Part shown: in pieces, positions 22,780 through 46,664 of the stretch | Layout: every line of letters starts with the position of its first letter | How positions within the stretch are numbered: position 1 is the stretch's first letter | DNA from: Planctomycetota bacterium | GTDB lineage: Bacteria; Planctomycetota; UBA8108; SXIK01 | Reading direction: 5' to 3' | NCBI GenBank assembly: GCA_965223845.1 | Contig: CBDCXR010000004.1 | Location: 1,024,001-1,088,000 of the forward strand | DNA length: 64,000 nucleotides | Translations under genes and position numbers: made by a program | Notes under the pieces: generated by a model | What the model saw: only the letters and a program-made list of their open reading frames with translations | Told to the model about the DNA's origin: nothing | The model's database searches: none

Positions 22780-24744
22780 ATGAAACAACTGAGGTATTGG
22801 AGTTTCCTTCCGGCTGCGTGCCTCCTGGCCCTACCGCTCTTCGGCCAGTCGTCGCTGCAGCTTGGAGGTGCCCCGGTTGCGAAGGAGGGAGACGTCACGA
22901 ACGTGACCGTGACCCTCGATGCCGATGGGGAGGTCGAGGGGATCGTCGTCGCTGCGGATTGGAACGGCGGCGTCGGACTGGGCGACAGCCTGACTCCGGG
23001 CGCGGTCGTCGCCGGGGCGGACGTCCTCGTGACGCGCCTCGAACCAGACTACGCGGTCCTCGGTGCCGTCATGGACAATGACGGTGTCGACCCGACCGTG
23101 ATCCCCGCGGGGGAGAGTCTGATCGCGACGATCGGCATCGAGATCCTCGCGGCCGACGAAGTCCTCAGCGTCCAGCTTACCGACTCGACCTACGCGTCGA
23201 TGGAAGGCAGCCCGCTGCTCGACAACATCATCGTCCAGGGCGGACTCTCGATCGGCTCGGAAGAAGGACTCGGTGGCGTCGGCCCGGACGGGAAGTTCGA
23301 CGTCCCGACCGTCGATTGCCTCCCGCGTCTCTTCTTCTCGGGCCCGCTGGCAAACAACAACGAGCCGACCGCAGTCGCGAACGTGATGCTCGAGAATTGC
23401 GTCCCGGTCGAGGGCTACGTCGTCGCCGTTTGTCACGGCCCGGGCGTCGTCCCGATCGACATCGTCCCGGGTTCGGCCGCCGTTGCCGCTCCGTTCGAGT
23501 TCGCGGCGGGTGAGCTGTCCGCGACCGGCGCGACTCTCGGTGTGGTCCTCGACTTCGAGGCTCCGTTCGCGGGACAGACCCTCGATCCCGGCGTGAACCA
23601 GGTCGCGGTGATCACGTACTCCGTCGAAGACGACAGCGTTTCGAGCGTGCCGCTCGAGTTCTGCGACAATGTCCTCGGCGATCCGCTCAAGGAGAACGTG
23701 TACGTGACGGGCGGTCGCTCGATCGGAAGGGGCGAAGGACTCGTTCTCTTCGACGACGCTCTCACGATCACGCCGATTGGCGATCGCCGTGAGATCTGCG
23801 ACAACGGGATCGACGACGACGGGAACGGACTCATCGACAGCGAAGACCCGGCGTGTCAGCAGGGCTTCTACTGCGGCAATCGCGAGCTCGGCGACGACGG
23901 GCTCCCGACTGACGTCGAGATTCCGCTCGGCGGCGAGGCTGAGGTCTGTTTCTTCCTGCTCACGCCGGAAGATAACGCCATCGGTGAAATCCAGCAGTTC
24001 GATCACGTCCAAGGTTTCTCGATGTCGGTCTCGTACTCCTGCAGTCTTTCGGCTGAGGAAGACCTCGACATCAGCGGAACGATCCTCGAGGCCCTCGGGG
24101 CTGAGTTCGTCTCCGTTCAGGCGGACAACGACCCGAACGACGGTGACGGCTGCGAGCTGATCATCGGTGTTCTCGTCGACGCTCTCCCGCCGTTCGATGG
24201 TGCGACGATCCCGCCGAGCGACCTGCTTCAGCGCGTGGGTTGCGTCACGTTCCATGCGTCCGACAGTCCGGATGTGTGCGGCGAGGAAGGCGTATTCGAA
24301 TTCGTCGACGGATTGAAGGGTCGCGGCAACGTGCCGGTCAAGAACCTGATCTCCGTCGAGAACCAGTCGCGTCGGCCTGCGCTCAACAACTGTGGCTACA
24401 CGGTCGTAGGCGCTCGCATCTTCTTCCGCGGCGACTGCAACTTCTCGGGCGAAGGCATGGGAATGGCCGTCAACATCGCGGATGCCGCGACGACGATCAG
24501 CGCCCTCTTCGCGCCGGACGTTCTGAAGCCGGAAATTCAGTGTGAGGACGCGTGTGATTGCAACGACGACGGTCGCTTCGACCTCGCCGATGCGATGTGC
24601 ATTCTCAACTATCTCTTCAAGTTTGGGCGGGTTCCGTCCGCTCCGGGTCCGGGACTCGATCCCGTCACGTGGGAACCGACTCCTCCGGGACCGGATCCCA
24701 CGCCGGACGCGCTCACCTGCGAGATGGGTACCGGCTGCCGTTAG
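22780..24744 (+). CDS. Secreted array protein A: 3 cohesin-like domains, Asp-rich motif, C-terminal dockerin-like domain
   Basis: GAGGAGG Shine-Dalgarno; signal peptide; EICDNGIDDDGNGLID; RGDCN..NIAD and DCNDDGRFDLADA EF-hand-like pair. Confidence 0.75.
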   Translation: MKQLRYWSFLPAACLLALPLFGQSSLQLGGAPVAKEGDVTNVTVTLDADGEVEGIVVAADWNGGVGLGDSLTPGAVVAGADVLVTRLEPDYAVLGAVMDNDGVDPTVIPAGESLIATIGIEILAADEVLSVQLTDSTYASMEGSPLLDNIIVQGGLSIGSEEGLGGVGPDGKFDVPTVDCLPRLFFSGPLANNNEPTAVANVMLENCVPVEGYVVAVCHGPGVVPIDIVPGSAAVAAPFEFAAGELSATGATLGVVLDFEAPFAGQTLDPGVNQVAVITYSVEDDSVSSVPLEFCDNVLGDPLKENVYVTGGRSIGRGEGLVLFDDALTITPIGDRREICDNGIDDDGNGLIDSEDPACQQGFYCGNRELGDDGLPTDVEIPLGGEAEVCFFLLTPEDNAIGEIQQFDHVQGFSMSVSYSCSLSAEEDLDISGTILEALGAEFVSVQADNDPNDGDGCELIIGVLVDALPPFDGATIPPSDLLQRVGCVTFHASDSPDVCGEEGVFEFVDGLKGRGNVPVKNLISVENQSRRPALNNCGYTVVGARIFFRGDCNFSGEGMGMAVNIADAATTISALFAPDVLKPEIQCEDACDCNDDGRFDLADAMCILNYLFKFGRVPSAPGPGLDPVTWEPTPPGPDPTPDALTCEMGTGCR

Positions 24745-24775
24745 TCTCTGACCAAACGGTATCGGCTTCGAGCTG

Positions 24776-24816
24776 AAGAGCACTCGGGACTCTCACGTCC
24801 CGAGTGCTCTTTTTTT
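24776..24816 (+). terminator. Intrinsic terminator after gene A
   Basis: AAGAGCACTCGGGAC / 6-nt loop / GTCCCGAGTGCTCTT followed by a T run. Confidence 0.88.
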
Positions 24817-25124
24817 GTGTGAGCTCGTCGATACTCGGCGAGCCCTTTCGAGCAAGAAAAATGCTCGGCTGGACCCGCGACACGCCGCTCGTCGACGCGT
24901 AAAATAGCTTTCACGCTGTGTTCCGAGCCGCCTCCGGTGGTCGCCAAATGCGGCTGGAGGCATCTCCGAGGAAGCTCGCGCGCTGTCCGTTCGCCGCGGC
25001 CTTCGATCGGAAGCGCGATCTGCGGACCACTGCAGCTTCACGCCTCGACATCTTGAGTTTTGCTTCACGCTTGGCGTGCGCCGTCTGCGCGCGGCACGCT
25101 TGTGGGACCGAGGATTTGTAAAGA

Positions 25125-27104
25125 ATGAACCGTACGAGAGCTACTCTGCACGCGCTCGTCTGGTGTGTGCTCGCAGCCGGCCCGCTCGCGGCGCAAGAGC
25201 GATTCGAGCTCGCGTTGGGCGAAGGCGTGGGAGCGCCCGGGGAACGCGTGACGATACCCGTGAGCATGACGAGCACCGCCGACGTGCAGGGAATCGTCGT
25301 CGCGTTCGAGTGGAACGGCGAAGTCGCGGAAGGCGTCGAGCTGACGCCGACGGCCGCACTCGATGCGGCGGATCTCGTGGTGGCGCGCGTCGAAGCGGAC
25401 TACATGGTTCTCGGCGTCGTCGTCGACACCGACGGCGATGGTCCCGACGCGATTCCCGCTGTCGACGATCAGACGATCGCCGAGGCGAGCCTCACGTGCC
25501 TTCCCATCGGCGAAGGTGAAGTCTCGACGGGCCTCGCGCTCGTCGACGGCAAGTACGCGTCGATCGAAGGGGGACCGATCCTCGACAATCTGCTCGCGAT
25601 CGGCGGGCTGTCGATTCGCATGGTGGACGGCCTCGAGCTTACGGATGGGCTGCTGACCTGTCGCGCACCGGAGTCTACGGTCGAGTTCGCGATCGTTCCC
25701 TCGGGGGCCGCGCCGGGAGCGTGTGTCGACGTTCCCATCGTCATGGCGAGCAACACGTCGATCGAGGGCTATGAGCTGTCCGTCGTTCACCCCGACGGCC
25801 TCGACTTGCAGTCGATCGAGCTCGGTGCCGCGGCGATCGCGAACGGCGCGGACTTTCACCAAGCCGAAGTGTTCGAGTTTGGCGGCACTCTCGGCGTCGT
25901 CCTCGATCTCAGTGCTCCCTTCGCGGGCAATGTCATTCCACCGGGAAGCGATCTCGAGATCGCGCTCTACCGCTACTGCTGCCCGCCGATCGCGGATCCC
26001 GACGTCGTCGAGATTCTCTTCCCTCTCGAATTCGCGGACGACGTGCTCGGCGATCCGCCGAAGGCGAACACGGCGGTTTCCGGTGGCGTCGAAGTCCCCG
26101 TGACGCTCGTCAACGGTTCCGTTCTGTGCAGCCGCGAGCTCGGCGATGAAATCTGCGACAACGGCGTCGACGACGACGGAGACGGACTTGTCGACGAGAA
26201 CGACCCGGATTGCCGCCAGGCGTCGCAGATGTTCGCCTGCGGAGCGCGCGAGAAGGACGCGGACGGGAATCCCGCCATGCCGACCGGACAGGTCGGTCAG
26301 ACGGTTGAGGTGTGCTTCTTCTACAAGTCACCGGAGGACAACGTCGCAGGTGGCGCGCAGTTCGATCAGGTTCAGGGCTTGTCTATGGGAGTCTGCTACC
26401 CCTGCGAGCTCTCGTGCGACGAATCGTCGCTCGATATCGCAGGAACGATCGTCGAAGCGGTCGAGGCGGATTTCGTGAGCCTTCAGTGTGACAACGACGC
26501 GAACGACGGCGACGGCTGCGAGCTGATCCTCGGGATCCTCGTCGATTCTCTGCCGCCCTTCGACGGGCGGACGCTTCCTCCGACCGACGACTTCATGCGC
26601 GTCGGTTGCGTCGACTTCACGATCGCGAGCGACTCGCAGCTCTGTGGTCAGTGCCTCCCCATCTCGTTCTGCGACGGCGTGAACGGTCGCGGCAAGGTGC
26701 CGATCAAGAATTTGATTTCCGCCGAGAACGAATCGCTCAGCCCGATGGTCATGGACTGCGAGGTCTGCGTGACCGGCGACGGAACGTTCCATCGCGGAGA
26801 CTGCAATTTCTCGGACATGGGAAACATGTCGGTCGACATCGCCGATCCCGCGGCGGTGATCAGCTTCCTCTTCATGTCGGGGCCGTGGCAGTTTCAGCCG
26901 CCCTGCCTCGACGCGTGTGACTGCAACGACGACGGGCGGATCGATCTCGCGGACGCAACGTGTATGCTCCACTTCCTCTTCCTCTTCGGATCGTTTCCGC
27001 CGGACCCCGGTCCCGGATTCGACATGATGGGAATGGAGCTTCCGCGCGGTCCAGATCCGACGCCGGATCTTCTCGGGTGTCAGGGTGGAGCGGAATGCCA
27101 GTAA
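25125..27104 (+). CDS. Secreted array protein B, paralogue of A
   Basis: Signal peptide; VTIPVSM...VQGIVVAFEW cohesin-like strand pattern; EICDNGVDDDGDGLVD; shares DGDGCELI and KNLIS.EN with A; dockerin-like C-terminus. Confidence 0.75.
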   Translation: MNRTRATLHALVWCVLAAGPLAAQERFELALGEGVGAPGERVTIPVSMTSTADVQGIVVAFEWNGEVAEGVELTPTAALDAADLVVARVEADYMVLGVVVDTDGDGPDAIPAVDDQTIAEASLTCLPIGEGEVSTGLALVDGKYASIEGGPILDNLLAIGGLSIRMVDGLELTDGLLTCRAPESTVEFAIVPSGAAPGACVDVPIVMASNTSIEGYELSVVHPDGLDLQSIELGAAAIANGADFHQAEVFEFGGTLGVVLDLSAPFAGNVIPPGSDLEIALYRYCCPPIADPDVVEILFPLEFADDVLGDPPKANTAVSGGVEVPVTLVNGSVLCSRELGDEICDNGVDDDGDGLVDENDPDCRQASQMFACGAREKDADGNPAMPTGQVGQTVEVCFFYKSPEDNVAGGAQFDQVQGLSMGVCYPCELSCDESSLDIAGTIVEAVEADFVSLQCDNDANDGDGCELILGILVDSLPPFDGRTLPPTDDFMRVGCVDFTIASDSQLCGQCLPISFCDGVNGRGKVPIKNLISAENESLSPMVMDCEVCVTGDGTFHRGDCNFSDMGNMSVDIADPAAVISFLFMSGPWQFQPPCLDACDCNDDGRIDLADATCMLHFLFLFGSFPPDPGPGFDMMGMELPRGPDPTPDLLGCQGGAECQ

Positions 27105-27221
27105 GTTCGGAGTGTGTGATCGCCAGCGCGCATAGGCGGCTGGCGTAGCGCGAGAGTGGACGGGGGGAAATCCATGATTGGTGCTAGGTCGGAGGGCAGA
27201 GAGAGGGAGAGGAGTTGGGTG

Positions 27222-28721
27222 ATGTCGAGGTTCGTCGGAACTGCCCTCGTTGCGGTCGTGATCGCTGGGGCGAACGTGGGAGCGATCGCCCAGGAGTTCT
27301 CCTTGGCGTTCGATACGCCCGAGGAAGTTCGAGGAGAGGCGGGCAGCACCGTCGGGATCGACGCTGCCGCCGTGCTCGCATCGAGCGCCGCCTCTCCCGG
27401 AGCGAGTGGCTGGCTGGTTGCGATCTCGGCCGAGGGCGCGACCGTAGTCTCGGCGACGACTGCGGGCACGGTCGGAGCGGAGGCGACCGATGGGGCGCCG
27501 GGTATGCGCGACGACGGCTTCGAGTCGACCGAGATCATCGATGCCGGCGGGGGCGTGATCAGCCGCGTCATTCTTTCCGAGTCGCTACCGGTCACTCTTC
27601 CTTCGGACGGGACGTACGACGTGCTCCACCTTCGCCTCGAGGCGGACGTGCCGCCCCCCGGGCGTGACGAAGTCGGAGATTTCGTCTGCGAGCCGCAAGT
27701 GGCGCGGCTTCTCTTCGCGGACGGTCTGATCGGCGCCGAGGGTGCCGCGAACAACTCGGTCTTCTACGGGGAAGGCGCGGAGGGCGCACCGACGATGTCC
27801 GAGTCGGAGATCCGGGTGTGTCCGCAGTTCGAGCAGATCATCGGCTACAGCATCGACGTCCTCGCTCCCGCCGGCGTGCGCGAGCGCGTCGAGGACAACA
27901 TCGCGTACTGGACCGTTCCCGTGCCGGTGTCCGCCAACACAGTGGACGTTACGGCGGGCGTGCGCCTTCACTCGAAGATCGACGACCCGGCCGCGGACGG
28001 AATTCAGGGTTGGTCCTGCTCGATCGTCACCGATCCGAGCTTCTTTCTCCTCTCGGCAACGGTGCAGCAGACTGCCGGGGACGAGGCTCCGATGGGCCTT
28101 CGTGATGGCGGGTTCGAGCGCACGGAGATCGTCGATCCGACCGATCCCGAGAACGCGGGACGCGAGGGCGCAGTGACGGCCGTCGTCCTTTGCTTCGGCT
28201 GTCCGATCACGCTTCCCCTCCAGAGCGAAGAGCTCGTGCTGAGAGTGACCGGTGAGGTCGATGTCTCGAGCATCACCGCTCCCGACCAGACGATCGACCC
28301 GATCACCGTCCGTCCGACGAGCATCGACGAGCTCGGGCTGCGCGGATCCGGGATCCCCGTAAAGACGACGGCGACGATCCTCGGCGATACCCGGACCCCG
28401 GATGTCCAGGGGCTCTCGTTCCAGCTCGTGGGCGCTCGTCAGACCGTGCTTCTTCGGGGCGACGCGAACGCCGACGGACGGGTCAACATCGGCGATCCGA
28501 TCTTCATCGTTCACGACCTCTTCCTCGGCGGCGTGCCGGTCGAATGTACGGATGCCGGCGACGCGAACGACGACGGTTTCATGGACATTTCGGACGCGCT
28601 CTACTTGATCAACTACCGCTTCCGGGCCGGACCGGCGCCGCGCGCACCGTTTCCGAACTGCGGCGCCGACACGAGCGGTGACGATCTCGCGTGTCCGGGA
28701 AGCCAAGCTCGTTGTTTGTAG
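27222..28721 (+). CDS. Secreted array protein C: 2 cohesin-like domains plus dockerin-like domain
   Basis: Signal peptide ending AIA-QE; QGWS, AVVLCFGC; RGDANADGRVNIGDP...DANDDGFMDISDA. Confidence 0.75.
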   Translation: MSRFVGTALVAVVIAGANVGAIAQEFSLAFDTPEEVRGEAGSTVGIDAAAVLASSAASPGASGWLVAISAEGATVVSATTAGTVGAEATDGAPGMRDDGFESTEIIDAGGGVISRVILSESLPVTLPSDGTYDVLHLRLEADVPPPGRDEVGDFVCEPQVARLLFADGLIGAEGAANNSVFYGEGAEGAPTMSESEIRVCPQFEQIIGYSIDVLAPAGVRERVEDNIAYWTVPVPVSANTVDVTAGVRLHSKIDDPAADGIQGWSCSIVTDPSFFLLSATVQQTAGDEAPMGLRDGGFERTEIVDPTDPENAGREGAVTAVVLCFGCPITLPLQSEELVLRVTGEVDVSSITAPDQTIDPITVRPTSIDELGLRGSGIPVKTTATILGDTRTPDVQGLSFQLVGARQTVLLRGDANADGRVNIGDPIFIVHDLFLGGVPVECTDAGDANDDGFMDISDALYLINYRFRAGPAPRAPFPNCGADTSGDDLACPGSQARCL

Positions 28722-29356: not shown

Positions 29357-30775
29357 ATGAAGAAAGTGTGGATTTCCGGTCTCGTCGCCTGCGCGGCGCT
29401 GTGTTTCACGGCCGGCCTCTCTGCTCAGGAATACACCCTCGGCTTTTCGGGCCCCGACTCGTTCAGCGGCGCGGCGGGCTCCACCGTCGGTGCGGATTAC
29501 ACCTGTGATCTCGCGCACTCCGGCGATGGTGTCGGAGCGCAGGGTTGGTCCCTCGGTATCGTCGCCGACGGTGGCACGATTACGTCGATCACCACGGATG
29601 GCACGAAGACCGAAGAGGTCTACGACAGCGGCTTCAACAAGACGCGTCTCGCGACCGGCGACATCGCCGGTGCGGTGAGCGCCGTCGTCCTCTGCTTCGG
29701 TTGCCCCAACGTCATTCCGCCGAACGAGCAGCATCCGATCCTCGCGATCGGCGTCGAATTCGACATTCCCGCCGGAGGTGGCACGGCTACGCTCAGCTAC
29801 CAGGAAGGCCTCGTCGGTGAAGGACAGCCGGTCGATCTCGTCGTCACGGAGAACGGGATCAGTGCTCCTTTCGTTCAGGAAGAGAAAACCATCGCCCTCA
29901 GCGAATCGATGGACTGCTGCTCGGCGGCGTTTCTCTCCGGATTCAACCTCGGGCGCGCCGAGCCGCTGATCACGGACGACGACGATGACGCTTGTACCGG
30001 ATCGGCCACTCTCGTCGCGAGCGGGCCGACTCGCGTGTACGCGGCGGCGAAGTCGAACACCGACGGCGCCGGCATCCAAGGCTGGTCGTTCGGCGTCGAG
30101 TGCCGCGGCGATATCAGCATCGACGACATCTCGGACGTGGGCTCGGCAGCGGCGCCGGTAGCAGACGGCGGGCTCTACGACAGCGGCTTCAACAAGACGC
30201 GTCTCTCGCCGCCCGAGAACAATGACGACGGTCGCCGTGGTGCGGTCAGCGCGGTCGTCCTGTGCTTCGGTTGTGACAACGCGCTCGAGCCGGTCGGCAC
30301 CGAAGCGATGATCGGCATGGATATCAGCGGTACCGGCACGGGCGAGCTTCAGTTCGCGTCGGGCCTCATCGGCGAAGGTCAGCCGGTCGACAACGTCCTC
30401 ACCGTTCTCGGCACCAGCGTCCCCGTTTGTAACTGGGACGAAAACGGCAGCGGCCCGACGCTTACGATCGAGTTCAGAGAGCCGGAGGGTGTCGGCCCGA
30501 TGGTTCGCGGTGATGCGAACGACGACGGTAAGGTGAACATCGCCGACCCGATCTGGATCATCAACGAGCTCTTCCGCCAGGGACCGGCGACGGGTTGCGA
30601 AGCTTCCGCCGATGCCAACGCGGACGACGCCGTCGATCTCGGCGACGCGATGTACATCATCAACTACCGCTTCCTCGCGGGTCCGGCGCCGAGCGCTCCG
30701 TTCCCGGACTGCGGTTCGCTCGAAGTCGGTGCGACGTCGCTGTCGTGTGACACTCCGCACTCGAACTGTCTGTAA
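29357..30775 (+). CDS. Secreted array protein D: 2 cohesin-like domains plus dockerin-like domain
   Basis: GGAGG Shine-Dalgarno; signal peptide ending LSA-QE; twice QGWS/YDSGFNKTRL/SAVVLCFGC/GEGQPV; RGDANDDGKVNIADPIWIINELF. Confidence 0.78.
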   Translation: MKKVWISGLVACAALCFTAGLSAQEYTLGFSGPDSFSGAAGSTVGADYTCDLAHSGDGVGAQGWSLGIVADGGTITSITTDGTKTEEVYDSGFNKTRLATGDIAGAVSAVVLCFGCPNVIPPNEQHPILAIGVEFDIPAGGGTATLSYQEGLVGEGQPVDLVVTENGISAPFVQEEKTIALSESMDCCSAAFLSGFNLGRAEPLITDDDDDACTGSATLVASGPTRVYAAAKSNTDGAGIQGWSFGVECRGDISIDDISDVGSAAAPVADGGLYDSGFNKTRLSPPENNDDGRRGAVSAVVLCFGCDNALEPVGTEAMIGMDISGTGTGELQFASGLIGEGQPVDNVLTVLGTSVPVCNWDENGSGPTLTIEFREPEGVGPMVRGDANDDGKVNIADPIWIINELFRQGPATGCEASADANADDAVDLGDAMYIINYRFLAGPAPSAPFPDCGSLEVGATSLSCDTPHSNCL

Positions 30776-30827
30776 TCGCCGACTGAGCGGGGCCTCCGCG
30801 ACATCGGAACCCGCGAGCGATTCTTAG

Positions 30828-30871
30828 AAACAGGTCTCGAAAGTGCTGCGGCGCTTTCGAGACCTGTTTTT
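30828..30871 (+). terminator. Intrinsic terminator after gene D
   Basis: AAACAGGTCTCGAAAG ... CTTTCGAGACCTGTTT followed by Ts. Confidence 0.82.
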
Positions 30872-31581
30872 CGTTATGGTCTTCCCGCGCCAGGCCGCAG
30901 GCGGTGCGCCTAGCGGATATCGTTCTCCCGTCCGCGTCCTCCTCGGCGACGACGATCCTCGTGTCGTCGCGCCCGGGCGATGCACCGCCGATCTCGAGCT
31001 CGCACCGCACCCAATACGTTGGATGTACGGTAGCGAAGCCTCGGGATACGTTCTTCCCTTCCCGGACCATTCCGGCTTAGAATAGCTGCTGTCTGTGCAG
31101 GGGTTTGGGCCCCTTCGCGGTTTGGGTTTGGAGTCTCCTTCGCCATCGTTCGGCTGGGTAGTCGACGACTGGCAACCTCGCCGTAGCACAGAATCTCATC
31201 AAACAGCGTGACGGCGCACGCGTGGGGTCGGGCACGCGAGGGATCGGAGAGCTAGGGTCGTCGCTGCGACCCGGGCACGCTCGTTTCGCTTCGGGGTTCG
31301 GTGTCTCGAAGCGGAGCCAGTCGAGTGTCCGTGTCGTGTGTGCGGCGAGTGAGCCATCGGCGTCGATCGCGGCGGTCGCTCGATTTGGTCGAAGCGTCCC
31401 GCGCCCCCGCGCGGAGTGCTCGCGTCGAGTTTGCCGTTTTCGAAATCGAATCGAGTTTTCGCAATTACAGATTGCTTTCGGAGTCGGGAATGTGCCCGGG
31501 AGCTGTCTCGGAGGGAGGCGGCGTTTCCCGACGTACGAATCACCAGACTAGATGGAACGAGGACACAACGAGGAGAGAGAA

Positions 31582-36839: not shown

Positions 36840-38309
36840 ATGAAGACGCGGCGATGGATGGCGGGCGTCGTGCTCGCGACTTGGGGTCTCACCTCCGGTG
36901 CATTCGCGCAGTCCGACGCGGATGTGTTCACGCTCGGCGTTCGCGGGCCGGACGCCGTCGCGGCCAAAGCCGGCGAGCTGGCGAGTGCCGACTACGAGAT
37001 TACGCTCACGCACGACGGCCTCGGCGTGGGCGCGCAGGCCTGGTCGTTCGGTGTCATCGGCGTCGACGCCGACATCGTTTCGATCACGACCGAAGGCACG
37101 AACGCCGCGGCTCTCTTCGACGGGGGATTCCAACGGAGCGAGCTCACCGACGGCGAAGGGAATCGCGGTGCGATTAGCGCGATGACTTTGTGTCAGGGTT
37201 GCCCCGCGACGCTGCCTCCGAACGAGACGTCTTCGATCGCCGTCATCGGCCTCTCCGTGCCGGTCGGCCTAGAGGATAGCGTGGCGGGGATCGAGTTCGC
37301 GGAGGGACTCGTCGGTGCGGGACAGCCCGTCCAAATCGTCGTCACGCAGGAGGGATTTACCATCGAGCCCGATCTCGCGGCGAAGGGAATCGAAGTGCTC
37401 GCGCTCCCCGATTGTTGTGCGCCGGGACTGAACTACGCGTTTTCCGGGCAGCGCGTCCAGAGCCCGGATCCGCTCCTCCCGACCGATTCCGACCCCGCCT
37501 GCCTCGGAAATACTACCGTTCTCGTCAACGAGGTCAGTCCCGGCGAGATCGGCCGCGGCAAGGTCTTCGTCAACGTGTCGTCGAATGTCGAAGGGGACGG
37601 CGTCCAAGGATGGTCGGTCGGCGTCGCCGTCGACGGCTTCCGCGTCGTCGAGGACAGCGTCTCGCTCGACGATACGGCGGGCGCGCCGATGCCGGACGGT
37701 CTCTACGACAATGGCTTCAACAAGACTCAGCGCATCGATCCGGGTGAGAACGAGGGCCAGGAGGGAGCGGTGAGCGCGGTCGTCCTCTGCTTCGGCTGCC
37801 CGACGACTCTGCCGCTCGTCGGCACCGAGTCGATCCTTCAGTTCGAGGTCGAGACGCTGGTGCCCGTGCCCGAGGAGGGCGCGATCGACGGGGTGTGTCG
37901 GGTGGAGGCGGACCTCCTCGGGAACGGGCAGCCCGTCCGGAACGTCCTCACGATCCTCGGTGCGAGCATCCCCGCTTGCAATACGCGGTTCGTCAGCGCC
38001 TCCATTCGGTTCGCTCCCGTCGAGAATCGTCCGTTTCGCCGCGGTGACGCCAACGACGACGGAAAGAACAACATCGCGGATCCGATCTGGATCTTGAACG
38101 AGCTGTTTCGTGACGGTCCGCGGTCGCCGTGCGATCGTGCCGCCGACGCGAACAGCGACGGGACGGTCGACCTCGCCGACGTGAGCTTCGAGGTCACGTA
38201 TCTGTTCGAGCGCGGCGAAGCGCCGGGCGATCCCGGACCGTTTGCGTGCGGGCCGAGTCCGACGACCGATGATGGCCTCAGTTGCGCGGACTTCACTTCG
38301 TGTGAATAG
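36840..38309 (+). CDS. Secreted array protein H: 2 cohesin-like domains plus dockerin-like domain
   Basis: Signal peptide ending AFA-QS; CQGC and CFGC; RRGDANDDGKNNIADP. Confidence 0.78.
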   Translation: MKTRRWMAGVVLATWGLTSGAFAQSDADVFTLGVRGPDAVAAKAGELASADYEITLTHDGLGVGAQAWSFGVIGVDADIVSITTEGTNAAALFDGGFQRSELTDGEGNRGAISAMTLCQGCPATLPPNETSSIAVIGLSVPVGLEDSVAGIEFAEGLVGAGQPVQIVVTQEGFTIEPDLAAKGIEVLALPDCCAPGLNYAFSGQRVQSPDPLLPTDSDPACLGNTTVLVNEVSPGEIGRGKVFVNVSSNVEGDGVQGWSVGVAVDGFRVVEDSVSLDDTAGAPMPDGLYDNGFNKTQRIDPGENEGQEGAVSAVVLCFGCPTTLPLVGTESILQFEVETLVPVPEEGAIDGVCRVEADLLGNGQPVRNVLTILGASIPACNTRFVSASIRFAPVENRPFRRGDANDDGKNNIADPIWILNELFRDGPRSPCDRAADANSDGTVDLADVSFEVTYLFERGEAPGDPGPFACGPSPTTDDGLSCADFTSCE

Positions 38310-38549: not shown

Positions 38550-38579
38550 TTGACACGCCGTTTCGAACGCCCCTATAAT
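38550..38579 (+). promoter_or_regulatory. Consensus sigma70 promoter upstream of array gene I
   Basis: TTGACA (38550-38555), 18 bp, TATAAT (38574-38579). Confidence 0.78.
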
Positions 38580-38889: not shown

Positions 38890-40344
38890 ATGCAAGTGAA
38901 GCTGTCCCGGGTTGGGAGTTGGAGTTTTCTCCCCGCCATCGTTCTGACTCTCTCGGCCGGCGTCGCTTTCGCCCAAGACCCTGCGAATTTCGATCTCGAG
39001 ATCCGCGTGGACAAGGAAGCCTACGCTCCCGGTGAGACGCTCGTCGCGACTCCGGGTGTCGTCGCGCGTGAGGCGGGTATCCAGGGCTGGTCGTACGGCG
39101 TGCGCCACGACCCGAACGTGCTCAGCCTCGACAGTGTCGGCATCGAGAACTCCGACACGGCTGGACTCTTCGACGAAGGTTTCAATCAGACCGAGATCAT
39201 CGTCGAGGGCGGCACCAACGTGGGATTCATTCAGGCGATCGCGCTCTCGCTCGACGGCGACGCCATCGTCGTTCCGGCGAACCCCGACGGCCTCTTCACC
39301 TTCGCCGCGGCGAGCTACACCGTCGCCGCGGACGCGTGTGAAGGAGCGGTCGGAGACATCATGACCGCGATCGAGTTCACCGAGGAGATCGGTGTTCCGG
39401 ACAGTCCCCCCGTCGAGACGAACCTCACCCTCGGCGGCCGCGGCCTCGTGCCGGCGTCGGTTGCCGGTGCGACGGCGACGATCACCTGTGAAGCCCTTCC
39501 CGCGGGACTCAGCATGCACTTTGCGGCTGGCGCGCAGGATCTTGTCGCCGACGAGACGGCGACGATCGACGTGACGGTCCACGGTTCGGCTTCCGGCGCG
39601 GCGTCCGAGGTCCAGGGTTGGTCCTACGGGATCCGGCTCGACACGACGGCGATCGTCGCGACTGCTGCGACTCCCGGCGCCGACGCCGCTGCCCTCAACG
39701 GGGGCAACGGTCCGGACTTCGTCAGCTACGAGCTCAACGATCAGAGCCTCGACGGGAACACGAAGGGTGTGACCGTCGGTGTCGCCGTTACGCTCAATGC
39801 TCCGGCGGCGGAAGTCCTCACGATCGCCGACGGCGAGACGAAGCACCTCGACACGATCACGATCCGCAGCGCCAAGTCGCTCGGCGAAGGTGAAAGCGAG
39901 ACGACCGAGATGGCGTTCGACAACACCCTCGGTGAGACGGCAGATCCCGTTCGCGATCCGATCGAGGCCATCTTCGTGATCGGCGGACGCAGCGTCGAGC
40001 CGACGCTCGGCGGCGCGAAGACGATCAACCTCATCGGCACCGGTGGTCCCGGTGGCGTCCGGTTCATCCGCTCCGACTCGAACAGTGACGGCCGCGTCGA
40101 CATCGCCGACGGCATCTGGACGCTGATGACTCTCTTTGGGGGCGAGCAGCTCTCGTGCGAGATCGCGGCGGACTCGAACGCCGACGACAGCGTCAACATG
40201 ACCGACGCGATGCACACGTTCCAGTGGCGCCTCCAGCCGGGTGCGACGCCGGGGAACCTCTTCCCCGCGCCGACGGCTCCGTTCCCCGCTTGCGGCACGG
40301 TGCAAGATCCGGTGCTCACCTGCGCGAATCACTTCTGCCAGTGA
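38890..40344 (+). CDS. Secreted array protein I: 2 cohesin-like domains (no CxxC) plus dockerin-like domain
   Basis: AAGGAG Shine-Dalgarno; signal peptide ending AFA-QD; twice QGWSYG.R; RSDSNSDGRVDIADG...DSNADDSVNMTDA. Confidence 0.76.
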   Translation: MQVKLSRVGSWSFLPAIVLTLSAGVAFAQDPANFDLEIRVDKEAYAPGETLVATPGVVAREAGIQGWSYGVRHDPNVLSLDSVGIENSDTAGLFDEGFNQTEIIVEGGTNVGFIQAIALSLDGDAIVVPANPDGLFTFAAASYTVAADACEGAVGDIMTAIEFTEEIGVPDSPPVETNLTLGGRGLVPASVAGATATITCEALPAGLSMHFAAGAQDLVADETATIDVTVHGSASGAASEVQGWSYGIRLDTTAIVATAATPGADAAALNGGNGPDFVSYELNDQSLDGNTKGVTVGVAVTLNAPAAEVLTIADGETKHLDTITIRSAKSLGEGESETTEMAFDNTLGETADPVRDPIEAIFVIGGRSVEPTLGGAKTINLIGTGGPGGVRFIRSDSNSDGRVDIADGIWTLMTLFGGEQLSCEIAADSNADDSVNMTDAMHTFQWRLQPGATPGNLFPAPTAPFPACGTVQDPVLTCANHFCQ

Positions 40345-40385
40345 GTTGATGTAGAGAAGGCGATCCGAAGCGGATCGCCGACGCG

Positions 40386-40433
40386 AAACAAAACGGCCCG
40401 ATCGAGCGCGTCTCGATCGGGCCGTTTTGTTTT
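40386..40433 (+). terminator. Intrinsic terminator after gene I (possibly bidirectional)
   Basis: AAACAAAACGGCCCGATCGAG / 5-nt loop / CTCGATCGGGCCGTTTTGTTT. Confidence 0.85.
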
Positions 40434-40829: not shown

Positions 40830-43800
40830 ATGCCACTCTCTCATCCCTCCTCTCGCTCGAGTTTCGTGCTTTGCCTGGCTGCGGTGCTCGCCCTCACCGC
40901 GTGCAACGATGGCACGAAGGTTCGCTCCACCGTTCCCTCATCGAACGAATCCGGCGTCAGCGCTCGTGCGCTGATCGCCATTCGCCTTTCGAACACGGTG
41001 AGCTCCGCCGACGACGGCAACATCTCAGACCCGAGCCTGTTCCAGGTGCGCGGCGACTTCACGGACGGGCTCTATCCGGGAACGGTCGCTCTCGCGGACT
41101 GGGACCGCGACGTCCGCCCGGGGATGACCGTCGACGAGTTCTCGCAGGGACTCGCGGACGGGGGCGGGGACGGCGAGGTCGAGCGTGAGCTCGACGCGCT
41201 CGTCTTCCTCCTCAGTCAAGGCGTGAGCTTCAAGCCGGGCGAGACGATCACCGTGATCATCGACCACGATATCACCGCTCACGGCGTTCCCCTCGAGCGA
41301 GGGAAGACGTTCTCGTTCCGCGTCGGCGACTCGGCGACGTCCGAAGGTGCGCTCCGCATCGTCACGACCGACCCGGCTGCGGGCGCGCAGGACGCCCCGC
41401 TCGCCCCCCGGATCCGCGCCAGGTTCAATCGGGGAGTCGCGGGCGCAGGGCTCGCTGAAGCGATCAGCATTCGCGGCGAGCGCTCGTTCTTTCACAGCGG
41501 AATCGACACGCTCTTCACTCAGGAAGTGGGCGCCGGAGTCCTCGAGGTCGTTCAGCGCCTCGCGGCCGGAGACGCGTTCGTTCCGGGCGAGACCGTCGAG
41601 GTCGCGTTCAGCTCGGACATACAAGACGCGCCGGGAGGCGGCGCGCTGCCGATCGCGCTCGCCGCGCACGTCCTCGAGTTCCAGGTGAGCGGAGGGCGAG
41701 TTGCCGGCGGTTGGGACGCGGAGGCGCTACCCTTCGTCGATGGGTCGCCGCGAACGGTCCTCGTCGCGGAGTTCGACGCCGAATTCGACGGTCTCGAGTT
41801 CATGGCCGTGACCTCGCGCACCCTCGAGTACTACGCTCAGACGGCGCCGGGACAGTGGAGTCAGATCGCGGCGACGAGCCTCGCTTCGGACGCCGGGCGT
41901 ACGGTCGTGGGCGGGGCGCTCCTCGATGTCGAGCGCGACGGCCGACCGGAGGTCGTGGTCGTTCGGAGCGGTGACTCCGACAGCTCGATCACCGTCTACG
42001 AATTCGACGAGGCCGGCGATCTCGTCGAGCACGCCGACCTCGCCGAGGAGACGTTCCCCGCCGCCGGTGTCCACGCTGTCGCGGCGATCGATCTCGATGC
42101 CCAGGGTGACCCCGAGATCCTCGCGTTCCACCCCGGAAATCGCGCGATCGGGCACTTGACGGTTTTCGCGCTGACGGAAGTGCCGCCGGACCCGGCGACG
42201 ATCGATCCGCTCGTCCCGGAGACTCTCCAGCCGCGGCCGGGTTGGGAGCGGACCGACAACCCCGTGCCGTCCTTCGACGAAGCCACTCGCGTCTCGGCGG
42301 TGGATCTCGGCGCGGGCGGACTCCTCGATCTCGTCGTCGAGACGGTCGGCGGAGATCTCGTCCTCTTTCAGAACGCTAGCAGCCCCGGTGCACCCTTTGC
42401 GCTTCGTCGAGCCGGCGTCCTCCGCGGACGCTTCGGCGGCTCGGTGGACGCGGCGGCGTGGGCCGACGCCGACTACGACGGCGACGGCGACGCCGATCTA
42501 ATCGTGTGGGACGCGGACGGCGCACTTCTCTTCGAGAACCAGACGGTTCGCGGTGAAGATGGCGCGGTGACCGGCGGTCTCCTCGAGGAACTCGCGCCTC
42601 CGATCGAGCTGCCGGAGCTCTCGGTTGGCATCGGCGCGCCGACGGCCGCCTTCGCGCGCGATCTCGACGGCGACGGCGGACTCGACGTTCTTCTTCGGCA
42701 CGAAGGGGGCGACGCGACGCTCGCACTCCTCACGCCCGAAGGAGTCGAGACCGCGGCGCTGATCGGACCGGTCGGCGGACGCGGACCCGTCGCGATCGCC
42801 GACGTGAACGGTGACTCGGGTCTCGACATCCTCCTCTTTCCCGAGGGCGACTCCGCCCCCGTCCTCCAGTCGGCGCGCGACGTGACGCCTCCCGCCGCTG
42901 TCACGCCGAGCGCGTTTCGCATCGCGCCCGGAGAGAGCGGCATCGTCGACTCGGAGCTCCGGGTGTCGATCCGCGGTGATCTGAGCGAGATCTTCAGCGG
43001 CTACTCGATCGCGCTCGACTACGACAATCGCTTCCTCGACCTCGAGCGATTCGAGCCTCCCGATGATCTCGCCGCGATCGCGACATTCGTGACCTGTCCG
43101 GACGCCAACGGAGTCGGCTGCGCCGGCAACGCGGCTGTGACGATGAGTTACTCCGAGAGTGTTCGCGGCGCCGCGTCCCAGGACGTATTTCTCGGTCGCT
43201 TCGTCTTCTCGATCGCTCCGCTCACCGAAGCCGCGACGACCGAGATCGAGCTCGAGTCGTTTCAGAGTGGAGGGGCGACATTCGAGAACACCCTGGCGAT
43301 CGTCGACGGCGAGGCGACGCTTTCGCTTCCCGTCGACGTGAGCGGCGGGATCTTCTCTGTCGAACTCCAGCCGCCGGCGCCGCCGGACCTCGTCGCGCAG
43401 TGCTTCGTCGACGAGAGGCGCCCCGACGAGACGGTCGTCTCGGTCGAGTGGGTGTCGCCGAGTGAAAAGGAGTTTTCCGGGTTCGAAGTGTTCGTCAGTG
43501 GATCGCGCGTCGCGACGCTCGGTGCGGCCGCGACGGGAGCGACCTTCACCACTCCGCTTACCGGCGAGCTCGCGATCGAGGTCCAAGGGCGGAGCGGCGA
43601 CGAGCTCGCCACCGCGTCTTGCCAGATCGTCGCCGTGCACGAGCCGCTCGTCGAATGCGAGGCGATCTCGGCGGCCGAGAACCGCGTGACGTGGTCGCTT
43701 GGGCATCTCGCCGATCGATTCAACGTCTATCGCAATGGAAATCGCATCGCTCGACTCGGCGGGGATGCGCAGGAGTTTACCGACCGGTCGCCGAGCCAGG

Positions 43801-46664
43801 ACGCCGCCGATCTCTACGAGGTTTCGGCGGAGCTGTCCGGAATCGAAGGCTCGCGCGGTGAGTGCGCCGGCGGTCCAGTGGGCGACCCCAACGTTCAGAC
43901 GACCGAGCCCCCGACGATCACGCAGGCGTCGCTCGTGACTCGAACGTCCGCGCGCCAAGCGAACGTTCTCCGGCTCCGGTGGACGAACGGCGAAGGATAC
44001 TCGTCGATCGCGCTCGCGCTCGCACGCGTCGTCGACGGGGCCGAGCAGATCGTCCTCGAGACGGATCTCGCGGGAACGGCGACGGAGTTCCTCTACGACG
44101 GCGGCGACCCGCTCGCCGGCGGAGTCCCACCCGGTGAGTATCGCTTTACGCTCGTCGGGGTGACCGACGGAATCGAGAGCGATGCGGTTCAGTCCGGTAT
44201 CGTGCCGGTGACGATTCCCGCGCTTTCGGTCGGGTTCGACTGCGCGATCGCCGGAAACGGTGACATCCAGCTCGGATGGGACGCCGTCTGGCCCGGCTAC
44301 GACGACGTCACCCTCCGCATCGAACACCGGATCAACGGTGTGCTCCAGGGCGCTGCGGAGACGGTGTCGGTCGGAACATCGGTGACGGAGTACACGATCT
44401 CTGAGCCGATCGCACTCGGGGTCTACTCGTTTCGGCTGCGAGCCGTGGAAGACACGATCGGACTTCCGCCGTCGGTGATTCCAGCGCCGGAAGCCCTGCA
44501 ACAGAATTGCGAGCTCTCCTTCTCCGCCGGCCTCTCCGTCGGCACGGTGCACGGAGGCATCGGTCTCAGCCAGATCGAGATTCCGATTCGCGCGCAGGTG
44601 TTCGGCGCGATCTCGGCGTTCCACTTCGAGCTCGAGTATCCGGACATCATCGACATCGATTCCGCGACGGGTCTGCTCGTCGACGCCCTCGGAGCGAACG
44701 CGACGCTCGTGATCTCGGCCGGATCATCCCCCGGGACGAATCGCGCGAGCGTTGATGTAACGGGGGTCCGCATCGTGCCCGATGCGGACGGAGATGGGAC
44801 GCTCGACGGCGAGGTGATCGTCGCGCGGCTCGTCGGCGCGGCTCCGTCGGACTTCGCGCTCGCGGGAACCTATCCGCTCACCTTCGTCGGAGCTCCGACG
44901 TTCCGGTTCGGGGTCGCGGATACCCCGGTCGCCGCGGTCGACGGCGAGCTCGAGCTCGTCCAGCGCTACGTGGTCGCCGAGAGCGTCGATCTCCCCCCGG
45001 ATTCCGACGAGCCGTTTACGGTGAGGGTATTCGGGACGTTCGTTGAGACCGTGCCCGACTACAAGCTGAACAGCTTCGCTATCCACATCCGTTTCGATCA
45101 CGAGCTGCTCGAGCTGCTTCCGGTCACGCAATCCGACCAGGCGGGCTCGGCGGTCGAAGGACTCGGGACGACGATCCTCCCGAACGCACAGGTGATCGAG
45201 GCTGCCAACAACCCGGCGTCGGGAACCACGGGGCAGGCGACGATCGCGTGGCTCGGGTTCAACCTGAGGGATCCGAACGTCGGGCTCGAGTTTCTCCACC
45301 CCGGAACGATGCTCAACCTCGTGACGTTCAAGTTCCGGCCGCGCGCCGGAGCGGCCGCGGCCGGCAGCACCGACATCACGTTCGTCACGCAGGCGCCGGG
45401 CGTCAGCAATCCGACCGCTTTCTTCCCTGCCGTCGACGTTCTCGGTGAGCCGGATCTCGAAGCGTTCTTTCCGGGCTCCGTGCGATTCGGTGAATCCGAG
45501 GCCCAGCCGGAGCTCTTCCGCATGGAACCGTCGGTCGGCTCGCTCCTCGGCGGGCAAGAGGCCGCACTCGTGGGAGCCGGGTTCCGCTCCGTCGCGCCGG
45601 AGGACATCGGCGTTCGCCTGCGCCGCACGGACGGCCCGGGTGCACCCGCCGACCTCGACGTGTCGGCGAACGAAATCCTCGAGATTCGCTCGGATCGAAT
45701 CCGGTTCATCGTCCCCGACTCGGGACTCCGGCCGCAGATCGCTCCGCCGTCCGTCTACTCGGCCGACGTGATCCTCGAGATCGCGGGCGCCGAGCTCATC
45801 GTTCCCGACGGCTTCGAGTACGAGTTTCCCCGGCTCGACGGTGGGGATCGAACGGCGGGGTCGTCGGACGGTGGTGATCTCCTCGTCCTGACCGGTGCGG
45901 GCTTCGCACCGGAGACCGAGGTCGGATTCCGTTTCGCCGACGCGACCGTCGACGCCACGGTCGACCGCGTCGACAGCGACGGTCGTCGTGTCCACGTCAT
46001 CACTCCCGCGCTCTCCGGCCGCGAGGGGCAGATCGCGACGATCGAGGTTCGGACTCCCGGGATCGTCGATCTTCAGCTGCAGAACTTCTTTACCGTGCTC
46101 GACCCCGACGCCGGGCCGACGCTCCGGCTCGTCTCGGTGACACCTGGAGTCGGCTCGATCTGTGGTGGGGAAACGGTGACGCTGACCGGTGAGGCGTTCG
46201 CGCCCGGTCTCGCGGTTTCCTTCGGAGGCGTCGCCGCCGAGAGCGTCACCGTCGAGAGCGCGACGAGCGCGACCGTGGTTGTTCCCGCCGTGCTCGAGGG
46301 AACGGGGACGGTCACCGTCACGGCTACGCTCGGGGCGAGCAGCGTGAATCTCGCCGACGCGTTCACATTCATGCATCCCGCGCCGCCCTTCATTCGCGGG
46401 GACGTCAACGAGGACGAATCGGTGTCCGTCGCGGACGTCGTCGTTCTCAGCGACCTCGTCGTTGGCGCCGCGGAGATGTTCCCGGCGAACTTCGACGCGG
46501 CCGACGTGAACGACGATGGGATCGTCGACGGTGGTGACGTGACCGCGCTCATGGACTTCCTCTTCGGAGCGGGGACGGCGCTCCCGCAGCCGCATCCCGA
46601 ACCGGGCCTCGATCCGACCCCCGACGCGCTCAAGTCCTGCACTGAAGTCTCGGACGGAGGTTGA
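40830..46664 (+). CDS. Giant lipoprotein J: Ig-like, FG-GAP repeats, FN3-like, ~3 cohesin-like, 3 IPT/TIG domains and C-terminal dockerin-like domain
   Basis: Lipobox LTAC (Cys codon 40902); DxDxDGxxD repeats (DYDGDGDAD, DLDGDGGLD, DVNGDSGLD); IPT-like PSVGSLLGG..LVGAGF, GGDLLVLTGAGF, PGVGSICGGETVTLTGEAF; RGDVNED..VADV...DVNDDGIVDGGDV. Confidence 0.75.
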   Translation: MPLSHPSSRSSFVLCLAAVLALTACNDGTKVRSTVPSSNESGVSARALIAIRLSNTVSSADDGNISDPSLFQVRGDFTDGLYPGTVALADWDRDVRPGMTVDEFSQGLADGGGDGEVERELDALVFLLSQGVSFKPGETITVIIDHDITAHGVPLERGKTFSFRVGDSATSEGALRIVTTDPAAGAQDAPLAPRIRARFNRGVAGAGLAEAISIRGERSFFHSGIDTLFTQEVGAGVLEVVQRLAAGDAFVPGETVEVAFSSDIQDAPGGGALPIALAAHVLEFQVSGGRVAGGWDAEALPFVDGSPRTVLVAEFDAEFDGLEFMAVTSRTLEYYAQTAPGQWSQIAATSLASDAGRTVVGGALLDVERDGRPEVVVVRSGDSDSSITVYEFDEAGDLVEHADLAEETFPAAGVHAVAAIDLDAQGDPEILAFHPGNRAIGHLTVFALTEVPPDPATIDPLVPETLQPRPGWERTDNPVPSFDEATRVSAVDLGAGGLLDLVVETVGGDLVLFQNASSPGAPFALRRAGVLRGRFGGSVDAAAWADADYDGDGDADLIVWDADGALLFENQTVRGEDGAVTGGLLEELAPPIELPELSVGIGAPTAAFARDLDGDGGLDVLLRHEGGDATLALLTPEGVETAALIGPVGGRGPVAIADVNGDSGLDILLFPEGDSAPVLQSARDVTPPAAVTPSAFRIAPGESGIVDSELRVSIRGDLSEIFSGYSIALDYDNRFLDLERFEPPDDLAAIATFVTCPDANGVGCAGNAAVTMSYSESVRGAASQDVFLGRFVFSIAPLTEAATTEIELESFQSGGATFENTLAIVDGEATLSLPVDVSGGIFSVELQPPAPPDLVAQCFVDERRPDETVVSVEWVSPSEKEFSGFEVFVSGSRVATLGAAATGATFTTPLTGELAIEVQGRSGDELATASCQIVAVHEPLVECEAISAAENRVTWSLGHLADRFNVYRNGNRIARLGGDAQEFTDRSPSQDAADLYEVSAELSGIEGSRGECAGGPVGDPNVQTTEPPTITQASLVTRTSARQANVLRLRWTNGEGYSSIALALARVVDGAEQIVLETDLAGTATEFLYDGGDPLAGGVPPGEYRFTLVGVTDGIESDAVQSGIVPVTIPALSVGFDCAIAGNGDIQLGWDAVWPGYDDVTLRIEHRINGVLQGAAETVSVGTSVTEYTISEPIALGVYSFRLRAVEDTIGLPPSVIPAPEALQQNCELSFSAGLSVGTVHGGIGLSQIEIPIRAQVFGAISAFHFELEYPDIIDIDSATGLLVDALGANATLVISAGSSPGTNRASVDVTGVRIVPDADGDGTLDGEVIVARLVGAAPSDFALAGTYPLTFVGAPTFRFGVADTPVAAVDGELELVQRYVVAESVDLPPDSDEPFTVRVFGTFVETVPDYKLNSFAIHIRFDHELLELLPVTQSDQAGSAVEGLGTTILPNAQVIEAANNPASGTTGQATIAWLGFNLRDPNVGLEFLHPGTMLNLVTFKFRPRAGAAAAGSTDITFVTQAPGVSNPTAFFPAVDVLGEPDLEAFFPGSVRFGESEAQPELFRMEPSVGSLLGGQEAALVGAGFRSVAPEDIGVRLRRTDGPGAPADLDVSANEILEIRSDRIRFIVPDSGLRPQIAPPSVYSADVILEIAGAELIVPDGFEYEFPRLDGGDRTAGSSDGGDLLVLTGAGFAPETEVGFRFADATVDATVDRVDSDGRRVHVITPALSGREGQIATIEVRTPGIVDLQLQNFFTVLDPDAGPTLRLVSVTPGVGSICGGETVTLTGEAFAPGLAVSFGGVAAESVTVESATSATVVVPAVLEGTGTVTVTATLGASSVNLADAFTFMHPAPPFIRGDVNEDESVSVADVVVLSDLVVGAAEMFPANFDAADVNDDGIVDGGDVTALMDFLFGAGTALPQPHPEPGLDPTPDALKSCTEVSDGG

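Follow-up and report, generated by a model that had tools for sequence, protein, structure and literature searches.

A class-conserved cluster of cohesin and dockerin genes in Planctomycetota and its possible role as a lipoprotein-rooted envelope scaffold

Ten genes built around cohesin and dockerin modules

The present analysis concerns ten genes, denoted here A to J, in a window of 64,000 nucleotides from a Planctomycetota bacterium (GenBank assembly GCA_965223845.1, contig CBDCXR010000004.1, positions 1,024,001 to 1,088,000; coordinates given below are those of this whole stretch unless they carry the label of a genomic contig). They form a class-conserved, core-genome cluster in which the nine proteins A-I are built only of cohesin and dockerin modules and the tenth, J, is a giant dockerin-bearing lipoprotein. 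The window is chromosomal, with a GC content of 62-69%, and its gene order leads from rpoC, by way of a ribosomal-protein/secY block, to yidC, mnmE, and smc. An initial annotation, made from the sequence alone, had described ten consecutive co-oriented genes encoding nine acidic secreted proteins, with two repeats in C-I and three in A and B and without recognizable catalytic domains, and this description agrees with our results. All ten genes are on the + strand (22780-46664); A-I are proteins of 472-659 residues with 6-29 cysteines each and isoelectric points of 4.05 (protein A) to 4.24, and their N-termini, judged by eye, are signal-peptide-like, with a hydrophobic core between a basic n-region and an A-x-A/Q-type end. 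Pfam searches at E <= 1 detected no catalytic family in A-I or J, and no carbohydrate-binding module (CBM), S-layer homology (SLH), sortase-signal, LTD, HYR, or P-domain family in A-J. Hidden Markov models (HMMs) recover two homologous modules in each of C-I, and two plus a third, divergent one in A and B.

The first two genes encode paralogues that are 46% identical. Gene A (22780-24744, + strand; 654 residues) specifies a signal peptide, two cohesins (domain HMM envelopes 22843-23310 and 23332-23784), a linker, the divergent, cohesin-like third module (23845-24408), a dockerin (24412-24645), and a tail rich in proline and cysteine (Pro/Cys tail), and gene B (25125-27104, + strand; 659 residues) encodes a signal peptide, two cohesins (25197-25670 and 25674-26144), a third module (26211-26774), a dockerin (26778-27008), and a tail. 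The linkers between cohesin 2 and module 3 (23788-23865 in A, 26142-26219 in B) are acidic and Cys-rich (EICDNGxDDDGxGLxDxxDPxC) and match the NCBIfam 'acidic double-disulfide repeat' model (acid_disulf_rpt) with E values of 8.3e-8 (A) and 1.7e-8 (B), below the cut-off of that model. Genes C (27222-28721; 499 residues) and D (29357-30775; 472 residues), again on the + strand, encode a signal peptide, two cohesins, a dockerin, and a tail; the respective modules are located at 27285-27833, 27849-28448, and 28443-28655 in C, and at 29420-29914, 29933-30490, and 30494-30706 in D. The same cohesin-cohesin-dockerin arrangement recurs, on the same strand, in E (31582-33021; 479 residues, 60% identical to D), F (33171-34598; 475 residues), G (34956-36437; 493 residues), and H (36840-38309; 489 residues), and in a divergent form in I (38890-40344; 484 residues), where our HMMs score the two cohesins at 1.7e-12 and 3.7e-6 and the dockerin at 2.7e-19. 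Gene J (40830-46664, + strand; 1944 residues counted from the ATG at 40830) encodes a lipoprotein signal, Big_5, FG-GAP, and TIG domains, three candidate cohesin-like modules (42897-43409, 44511-44984, and 44967-45524), a dockerin (46386-46598), and a tail.

The repeat modules of A-I are predicted to fold as cohesins and their tails as dockerins, as judged from AlphaFold2 models of D (pLDDT, the predicted local distance difference test, 93.9; predicted template modeling score, pTM, 0.72) and B (pLDDT 93.0, pTM 0.53), built from alignments of 85 D-family and 63 B-family proteins, respectively. Both models were compared with 48,161 representative chains using VIA-align. For residues 25-184 of D, the 19 best rows were all cohesins (Z 14.2 to 10.5), headed by 4uyp_A (Z 14.2, root-mean-square deviation [rmsd] 2.5, 138 of 144 residues aligned) and including 2xdh_A (Z 13.5). 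Module 1 of B (residues 25-182) matched the cohesin 2vn5_A (Z 17.9, rmsd 1.8, 136 of 142 residues aligned), and module 2 (residues 183-341) the cohesin 2xdh_A (Z 16.2). Module 3 (residues 364-550) yielded structural matches only to pilin-type sandwiches (Z 8-9.4), and the cohesin-2 HMM detects it as a remote homologue with E values of 9.3e-6 in A and 6.5e-5 in B. For D module 1 and B modules 1 and 2, the fold check of the initial suggestion that the repeats are cohesins was positive, with Z scores of 14-18 against solved cohesins and 9.5-10 for the dockerins. Foldseek, applied to the complete D model with the PDB as target, returned mixed multi-domain rows (integrins, AgI/II) at a template modeling (TM) score of 0.2, with the cohesin dyad 3l8q at rank 7, a picture too blurred to be used.

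The cohesin HMMs were cut from the D- and B-family alignments, which included the proteins of the window, and only cross-module matches are informative. With E values of 1e-22 to 1e-38, the HMM for cohesin position 1 also detects position 2 of C-H; the C-H cohesins are closer to the same position in paralogues (1e-38 to 1e-64) than to the other position. Because the two positions keep separate identities across the paralogues, this pattern suggests at least two socket specificities in each of the C-H subunits.

The dockerin assignment extends to all ten proteins. Dockerin_1 (Pfam PF00404) matches the C-terminus of 10/10 at E <= 1 (1.7e-6 to 0.94; A 0.025, C 2.8e-5, J 1.6e-5), above its curated cut-off of 22.9 bits in four (C 24.7, D 28.5, E 25.6, and J 25.4 bits) and below it, at 10.2-20.3 bits, in the remaining six. 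The duplicated Ca loop (D-x-N-x-D-G-x5-D) is canonical in both copies in C-H and near-canonical in I and J, and DSSP assigns a helix after each loop of the D model (residues 396-406 and 428-439). In VIA-align, D residues 379-455 superpose on the dockerin 5m2o_B with Z 10.1 (rmsd 1.7, 70 aligned) and B residues 552-628 with Z 9.5 (rmsd 1.6, 71 aligned). Moreover, a profile of the 85 D-family proteins compared with PDB sequences matched solved CelS dockerins (E 2.9e-5); its matches were dockerins only, with no cohesin among them, so that sequence alone does not establish the cohesin identity. The dockerins of A and B are closest to each other and to three AB-type paralogues elsewhere in the genome, and those of C-H to each other and to one D-type paralogue elsewhere.

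By its sequence motif, J is a lipoprotein: a lipobox, LALTA-C, occupies residues 20-25, and Cys25 is retained by at least 90% of the 26 homologues in the alignment. Pfam matches in J are to FG-GAP_3 (3.4e-11), TIG (4.5e-11), and Big_5 (1e-6); the protein combines a propeller and Ig-like domains with its dockerin, and the aligned homologues end in a dockerin followed by G-x-D-P-T-P-D-x-L-x-S-C. An exhaustive search with the middle region of J against 1.84 billion representatives retrieved 78 relatives with E values of 0.001 or lower, including 36 at E <= 1e-30, and most J relatives are 1,900-2,350 residues long. J probably carries three cohesin-like modules: in the ESM Atlas, the nearest named cluster is Cohesin both for residues 690-860 (score 0.92, with 28/30 matches in that set) and for residues 1228-1565 (score 0.90), and profile comparison of J with the cohesin modules of B using hhalign gave E values of 1.5e-4 to 5.9e-4 at probabilities of 29-52%, residues 690-860 matching B cohesin 2 at E 1.5e-4 and 51%. 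J thus has the lipoprotein motif that was initially described but is not a plain anchor, as it also bears a dockerin and tail and, probably, these modules.

Distribution of the modules among relatives and across the genome

Relatives of the AB and D families were sought in a set of 5.8 billion proteins at E <= 0.001, with the 8000 candidates sharing most words scored for each query; on this basis the D family has at least 203 matches and the B family at least 91. All named sources are metagenome-assembled genomes of Planctomycetes/Planctomycetota, with the proteins annotated as 'hypothetical' or 'dockerin ... protein'. Relatives of B in genome contigs were found in 459 stretches, of which 75 loci were kept and their open reading frames (ORFs) classified with our HMMs. 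AB- and D-type genes occur together in 52 of the 75 loci, often alternating, and the family ORFs are uniformly co-oriented (265, with none on the opposite strand). Because the same families recur in 75 related loci, always co-oriented, the arrangement is far beyond chance. A J-type gene is present in 19 of these loci, and in 19/19 it closes the series of family genes, immediately after a D-type gene, the position held by I in the window; hence the gene order is kept in relatives, as a synteny check proposed at the outset was to establish.

The AB family is confined, in our sampling, to the class to which the window belongs. Among 300 further genomes sampled from the phylum, it was found in 15/15 of that class and in 0/285 of other classes (E <= 1e-20), and within the class it is present in 58/59 genomes, including 31/31 high-quality ones, with 7-12 matches in genomes of 2.6-3.0 Mb. 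The middle region of J, searched with a single-protein query, was detected in 23/59 class genomes, comprising 19/20 other genomes of the order of the window and few beyond; more distant J-type genes were seen only by weaker whole-protein scores. The cluster is placed between a SurA-like chaperone gene and yidC, and conserved flanks recur in related loci: the gene for the SurA-like peptidyl-prolyl isomerase (PPIase) in 5, that for a 341-residue lipoprotein in 8, and yidC downstream in 11.

The existence of dockerin-tagged proteins encoded elsewhere, which had been anticipated, is evident from a census with our HMMs over the 27,138 ORFs with 100 or more residues: the genome contains 332 dockerins in 309 ORFs, 299 of these ORFs lying outside the locus. 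The dockerin is located within 60 residues of the C-terminus in 277 ORFs, N-terminally in 20, and internally in 12. Across the genome, C-terminal dockerins are followed by a stereotyped tail of 13-30 residues (P-x-P-F-P-x-C-G-x-D-P-T-x-D-x-L-x-C), which is without a hydrophobic segment. The Pfam dockerin model gives at least 145 matches among the 150 scored of 421 candidates; in each of four small relatives the same model gives 37-42 matches, and in a 9.2-Mb relative at least 109 among 150 candidates scored.

Cohesins are far fewer. At E <= 1e-5 we detected 47 modules in 30 ORFs, with 20 in the A-J locus, which is the largest socket locus of the genome. A dockerin is present in every one of the 30 cohesin-bearing ORFs, leaving 279 dockerin ORFs without a detected cohesin; the Pfam Cohesin model exceeds its cut-off at four places in the genome, none of them in the window. 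Besides J, one further cohesin ORF has a lipobox (G000:C4:1163672-1166950, - strand, outside the window); its 1092-residue product combines the lipobox VSSC, two cohesin modules, and a C-terminal dockerin, and may root the same network in a membrane at a further point. Dispersed paralogues of the cluster proteins, one D-type and three AB-type, are encoded at G000:C4:654253-655686, 2394469-2396412, 2040443-2041867, and 7348487-7349965; the D-type paralogue has 477 residues and is 53% identical to D, and two of the three AB-type paralogues are without the second cohesin.

With respect to the putative clients, 40 randomly chosen ORFs of the 299 non-locus dockerin ORFs were searched with Pfam, applying E <= 1e-4 for catalytic domains. 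The families found were LTD (9), CotH (6), FG-GAP (4), Laminin_G_3 (4), and F5/8C (2), with single cases of PKD, HYR, VWA, beta-helix, TIG, FGE-sulfatase-like, and others; 11 had no family. Six of the 40 are giant proteins combining LTD, CHB_HEX_C, Fn3_assoc, and CotH-kinase-like domains with a short tail, xGxxCVRIxGCPxxC, which appears to be a separate dockerin-tail subtype.

A candidate envelope scaffold and its alternatives

What is understood of cohesin-dockerin pairs concerns almost exclusively their part as the glue of cellulosomes in Gram-positive anaerobes, and the role of the many non-cellulosomal modules, reportedly treated by Peer et al. in 2009, is a long-standing question. The system described here is unusual in that it is compact and enzyme-free, comprises at least 20 sockets and 10 plugs, is present in 58/59 genomes of its class, and has a fixed gene order beside envelope-biogenesis genes; the question can thus be tested directly with the ten locus proteins. 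On balance, and with modest confidence, we consider it probable that A-J are the main scaffoldin-like set of a non-cellulolytic system, a multi-level, lipoprotein-rooted cohesin-dockerin scaffold of the envelope that displays other proteins. Under this proposal, J, lipid-anchored in an envelope membrane, would be the root; dockerins would plug into cohesins in a Ca-dependent manner, such that the ten proteins would form an adaptor-on-adaptor scaffold, with A-I stacking on J and on each other; and the surplus sockets would hold part of the approximately 300 dockerin-tagged exported proteins (LTD, CotH, FG-GAP, lectin-like, and Ig-like).

The proposal has parallels in known systems. Cellulosomal adaptor and anchoring scaffoldins (the products ScaA, ScaB, ScaC, ScaE of the R. 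flavefaciens sca cluster, the adaptor ScaA of A. cellulolyticus, PDB 3l8q, and those of B. cellulosolvens) likewise are non-catalytic secreted proteins with tandem cohesins, some with a dockerin of their own, encoded by clustered genes in genomes where dockerin proteins far outnumber cohesins, and their solved folds match those of the locus. R. flavefaciens has 222 dockerin proteins (PMC2930009), and B. cellulosolvens has over 200 dockerin ORFs beside 78 cohesins (PMC5590126); the plug-to-socket ratio found here is similar, which favors the proposal, and the 309 dockerin ORFs exceed the numbers in these richest cellulosome producers compared. The differences are that the host is a diderm planctomycete rather than a member of Bacillota, that A-J are without CBM, SLH, and sortase signals and the anchor is a lipoprotein, that every detected cohesin protein bears a dockerin, that the dockerins are Cys/Pro-tailed, that none of the 40 sampled clients has the catalytic domain of a carbohydrate-active enzyme (CAZyme), and that the cohesin sequences fall under the Pfam cut-off. 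A cellulosome survey lists a single bacterium of the Planctomycetes-Verrucomicrobia-Chlamydiae (PVC) group, with a two-cohesin scaffoldin (PMC11557425).

A further precedent, mentioned in the initial annotation and indeed published, is the 'planctosome' of the freshwater Nemodlikiaceae, for which a cohesin-dockerin complex of planctomycetes other than a cellulosome was proposed (Andrei et al., ISME J 2019, PMC6461901). The model consists of an LTD/P-domain anchor with one cohesin, one dockerin-HYR-cohesin adaptor, and dockerin-tagged peptidases. The likeness thus lies in an anchoring protein, an adaptor with both dockerin and cohesin, and dockerin-tagged clients, whereas the present system has ten genes, at least 20 cohesins, and a lipoprotein root, lacks LTD, HYR, and P-domains in the locus, and shows no peptidase among the 40 sampled clients; LTD and HYR do occur on non-locus dockerin proteins of the genome. 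Cohesin and dockerin folds are also known beyond cellulose degradation, the cohesins from the Archaeoglobus fulgidus cohesin 2xdh, which as 2xdh_A is among the best structural matches of both D and B, and from Clostridium perfringens GH84C/GH33 (2w1n, 2vo8); those modules are single and located on enzymes or small proteins, in contrast to the conserved multi-gene cohesin-cohesin-dockerin array with a lipoprotein found here. Full-text searches on planctomycete cohesins, dockerins, and scaffoldins brought up the planctosome model and, among the papers listed, no description of this locus; supplementary figures 13-14 of the planctosome paper may show related architectures. The novelty of the locus lies in its size, its conservation across the class, its fixed position, and the J protein.

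Several observations weigh against a displaying scaffold. No locus protein reaches the Pfam Cohesin (PF00963) cut-off of 24.1 bits, the sole match at E <= 1 being B (10.2 bits, E 0.88; 14.2 bits in the whole-genome search); hence, in the Pfam check suggested at the outset, four of the ten proteins exceed the cut-off for dockerins and none that for cohesins, and the cohesin identity rests on fold and remote homology. Similarly, the duplicated Ca loops and Pro/Cys tails initially noted are matched by Dockerin_1 in all ten proteins, but in A and B only loop 2 is canonical, loop 1 being atypical (GDCNFS plus an insertion). The evidence for cohesin-like modules in J is weak: the locus cohesin HMMs detect nothing significant there, and single-sequence hhalign reaches about 53% probability over one 50-residue stretch. 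In E. coli, Asp after the lipidated Cys causes inner-membrane retention; at this position J carries Asn and the family consensus has Asp, so that a cell-surface location is not assured. The pairing of cohesins and dockerins at the locus is itself argued from the likeness to cellulosomes. Finally, with a glycoside hydrolase, lyase, esterase, or peptidase catalytic domain in 0/40 sampled dockerin ORFs, the purpose of a display scaffold is not evident. A complex prediction for the two cohesins of D and its dockerin with tail (three chains, with alignments and without controls) scored 0.17 against a mark of 0.32 and counts neither way.

The strongest competing explanation, advanced in the initial annotation, is that A-J mainly bind each other as monomers with one plug and two or three sockets, for which a branched, Ca-dependent, enzyme-free lattice on J is predicted (an S-layer-like coat, a fiber, or a matrix), display being secondary. 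It is best supported by the presence of a plug on every detected socket protein. A locus free of client or enzyme genes, at a conserved core position next to the SurA-like gene and yidC, would suit such a structure; retention by nearly the entire class, with 7-12 AB-family matches even in genomes of 2.6-3.0 Mb, is an investment befitting a structural layer; and the Pro/Cys tails are compatible with the Pro/Cys-rich, disulfide-stabilized envelopes reported for classical planctomycetes (PMC3035269). The AB-type and D-type dockerins also form subgroups apart from the bulk in the genome, but this may merely reflect the descent of the whole proteins. Mutual binding leaves the 279 cohesin-less dockerin ORFs in need of a partner, with only 47 sockets detected, and the number of dockerins in the small relatives exceeds the need of self-assembly alone; moreover, a family absent from the 285 sampled genomes of other classes does not qualify as the envelope protein of those planctomycetes on which the classical studies were made. 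Given that the dockerin with its tail is a genome-wide C-terminal tag (277/309), a display scaffold is at least as likely as an enzyme-free polymer, and we regard the latter as an unlikely, if serious, contender.

That ubiquity of the tag could also be read in another way, namely that the dockerin-like module and Pro/Cys tail constitute a general C-terminal sorting or wall-attachment tag of the lineage that does not pair with the cohesin-fold modules; either a machinery for export or anchoring would recognize it or it would attach to a non-protein component of the envelope, and the cohesin-fold modules would be Ig-like spacers or ligand-binding domains of adhesins. The C-terminal position and stereotyped tail are indeed the layout of known C-terminal sorting domains, and the tagged proteins are large, adhesin-like, and of many unrelated kinds. 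Plugs outnumber detected sockets by over 6:1, but such ratios are normal in cellulosome producers. A mere tag would not account for the intactness of both Ca loops and of the two-helix dockerin fold in C-H and J, or for the occurrence of true cohesin folds in the same genome, always on dockerin-bearing proteins; furthermore, the tail is devoid of a hydrophobic segment, and a scan of six locus proteins (A, B, C, D, I, and J) with the NCBIfam sorting-signal models gave no match at E <= 0.1. We judge this explanation to be distinctly improbable. Membership in a cellulosome is rejected, given the lack of CAZymes among the 40 sampled clients and of CBM or SLH in the locus.

A bolder possibility, to which we assign a low probability, is a class-specific envelope lattice in which A-I would polymerize via the predicted Ca-dependent contacts, the tails would lock by disulfides, J would root the structure, and the roughly 300 tagged proteins would dock onto it. 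Old chemical work describes planctomycete envelopes as consisting nearly entirely of protein, with much Pro and Cys and with disulfide stabilization (PMC3035269), and the Pro/Cys tails would fit this picture; the link is by analogy only, because the AB family was not found outside the class. If such a lattice existed, it would be a cell-wall-like or S-layer-like structure made purely of cellulosome parts and the molecular counterpart of those envelopes, and would represent a new principle of bacterial envelope construction; it could also furnish orthogonal, disulfide-stabilized plug-and-socket pairs for protein engineering.

Gene spacing and neighboring features

The gaps between genes A-J measure 117-806 bp. 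A strong terminator-like hairpin with a 16-bp stem and a T run follows gene A (24775-24812, + strand), and a sigma-70-like site matching 12/12 positions precedes gene I (38550-38579); given these features and the gaps of up to 806 bp, A-J need not be one operon. The longest gap, between D and E (30776-31581, 806 bp), is without a family match and without similarity to other intergenic regions, and all-against-all comparison revealed no shared element among the intergenic regions. Rfam and tRNA scans of the window gave no match. No RNA runs containing the stretch are listed; four DNA runs, from one study, contain it.

Four ORFs adjoining the cluster, at 46661-47131 (+), 47348-48367 (-), 21895-22227 (-), and 22234-22698 (-), were treated as non-coding, with no family and Arg/Ser/Pro-rich translations. 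The second of these is a shadow frame, the BLAST conservation of which in 14 loci reflects the gene on the opposite strand, located between J and yidC (47450-48226, +), that encodes a calcineurin-like metallophosphoesterase (Metallophos_2, 9.4e-17). Upstream of the cluster, at 19630-21761, the SurA-like PPIase gene (Rotamase 1.2e-14, SurA_N_3 6.2e-5) overlaps the gene for the 341-residue protein by 4 bp; the latter protein has a lipobox-like LPGC motif and a very faint resemblance to an esterase (AXE1, E 0.34). Because these two genes recur just upstream of the cohesin cluster, they may be a dedicated chaperone or processing pair. Farther away, downstream of smc, a gene at 57232-59493 (+) encodes a 753-residue pentapeptide-repeat protein (Pentapeptide, 2.9e-71, in 10 stretches).

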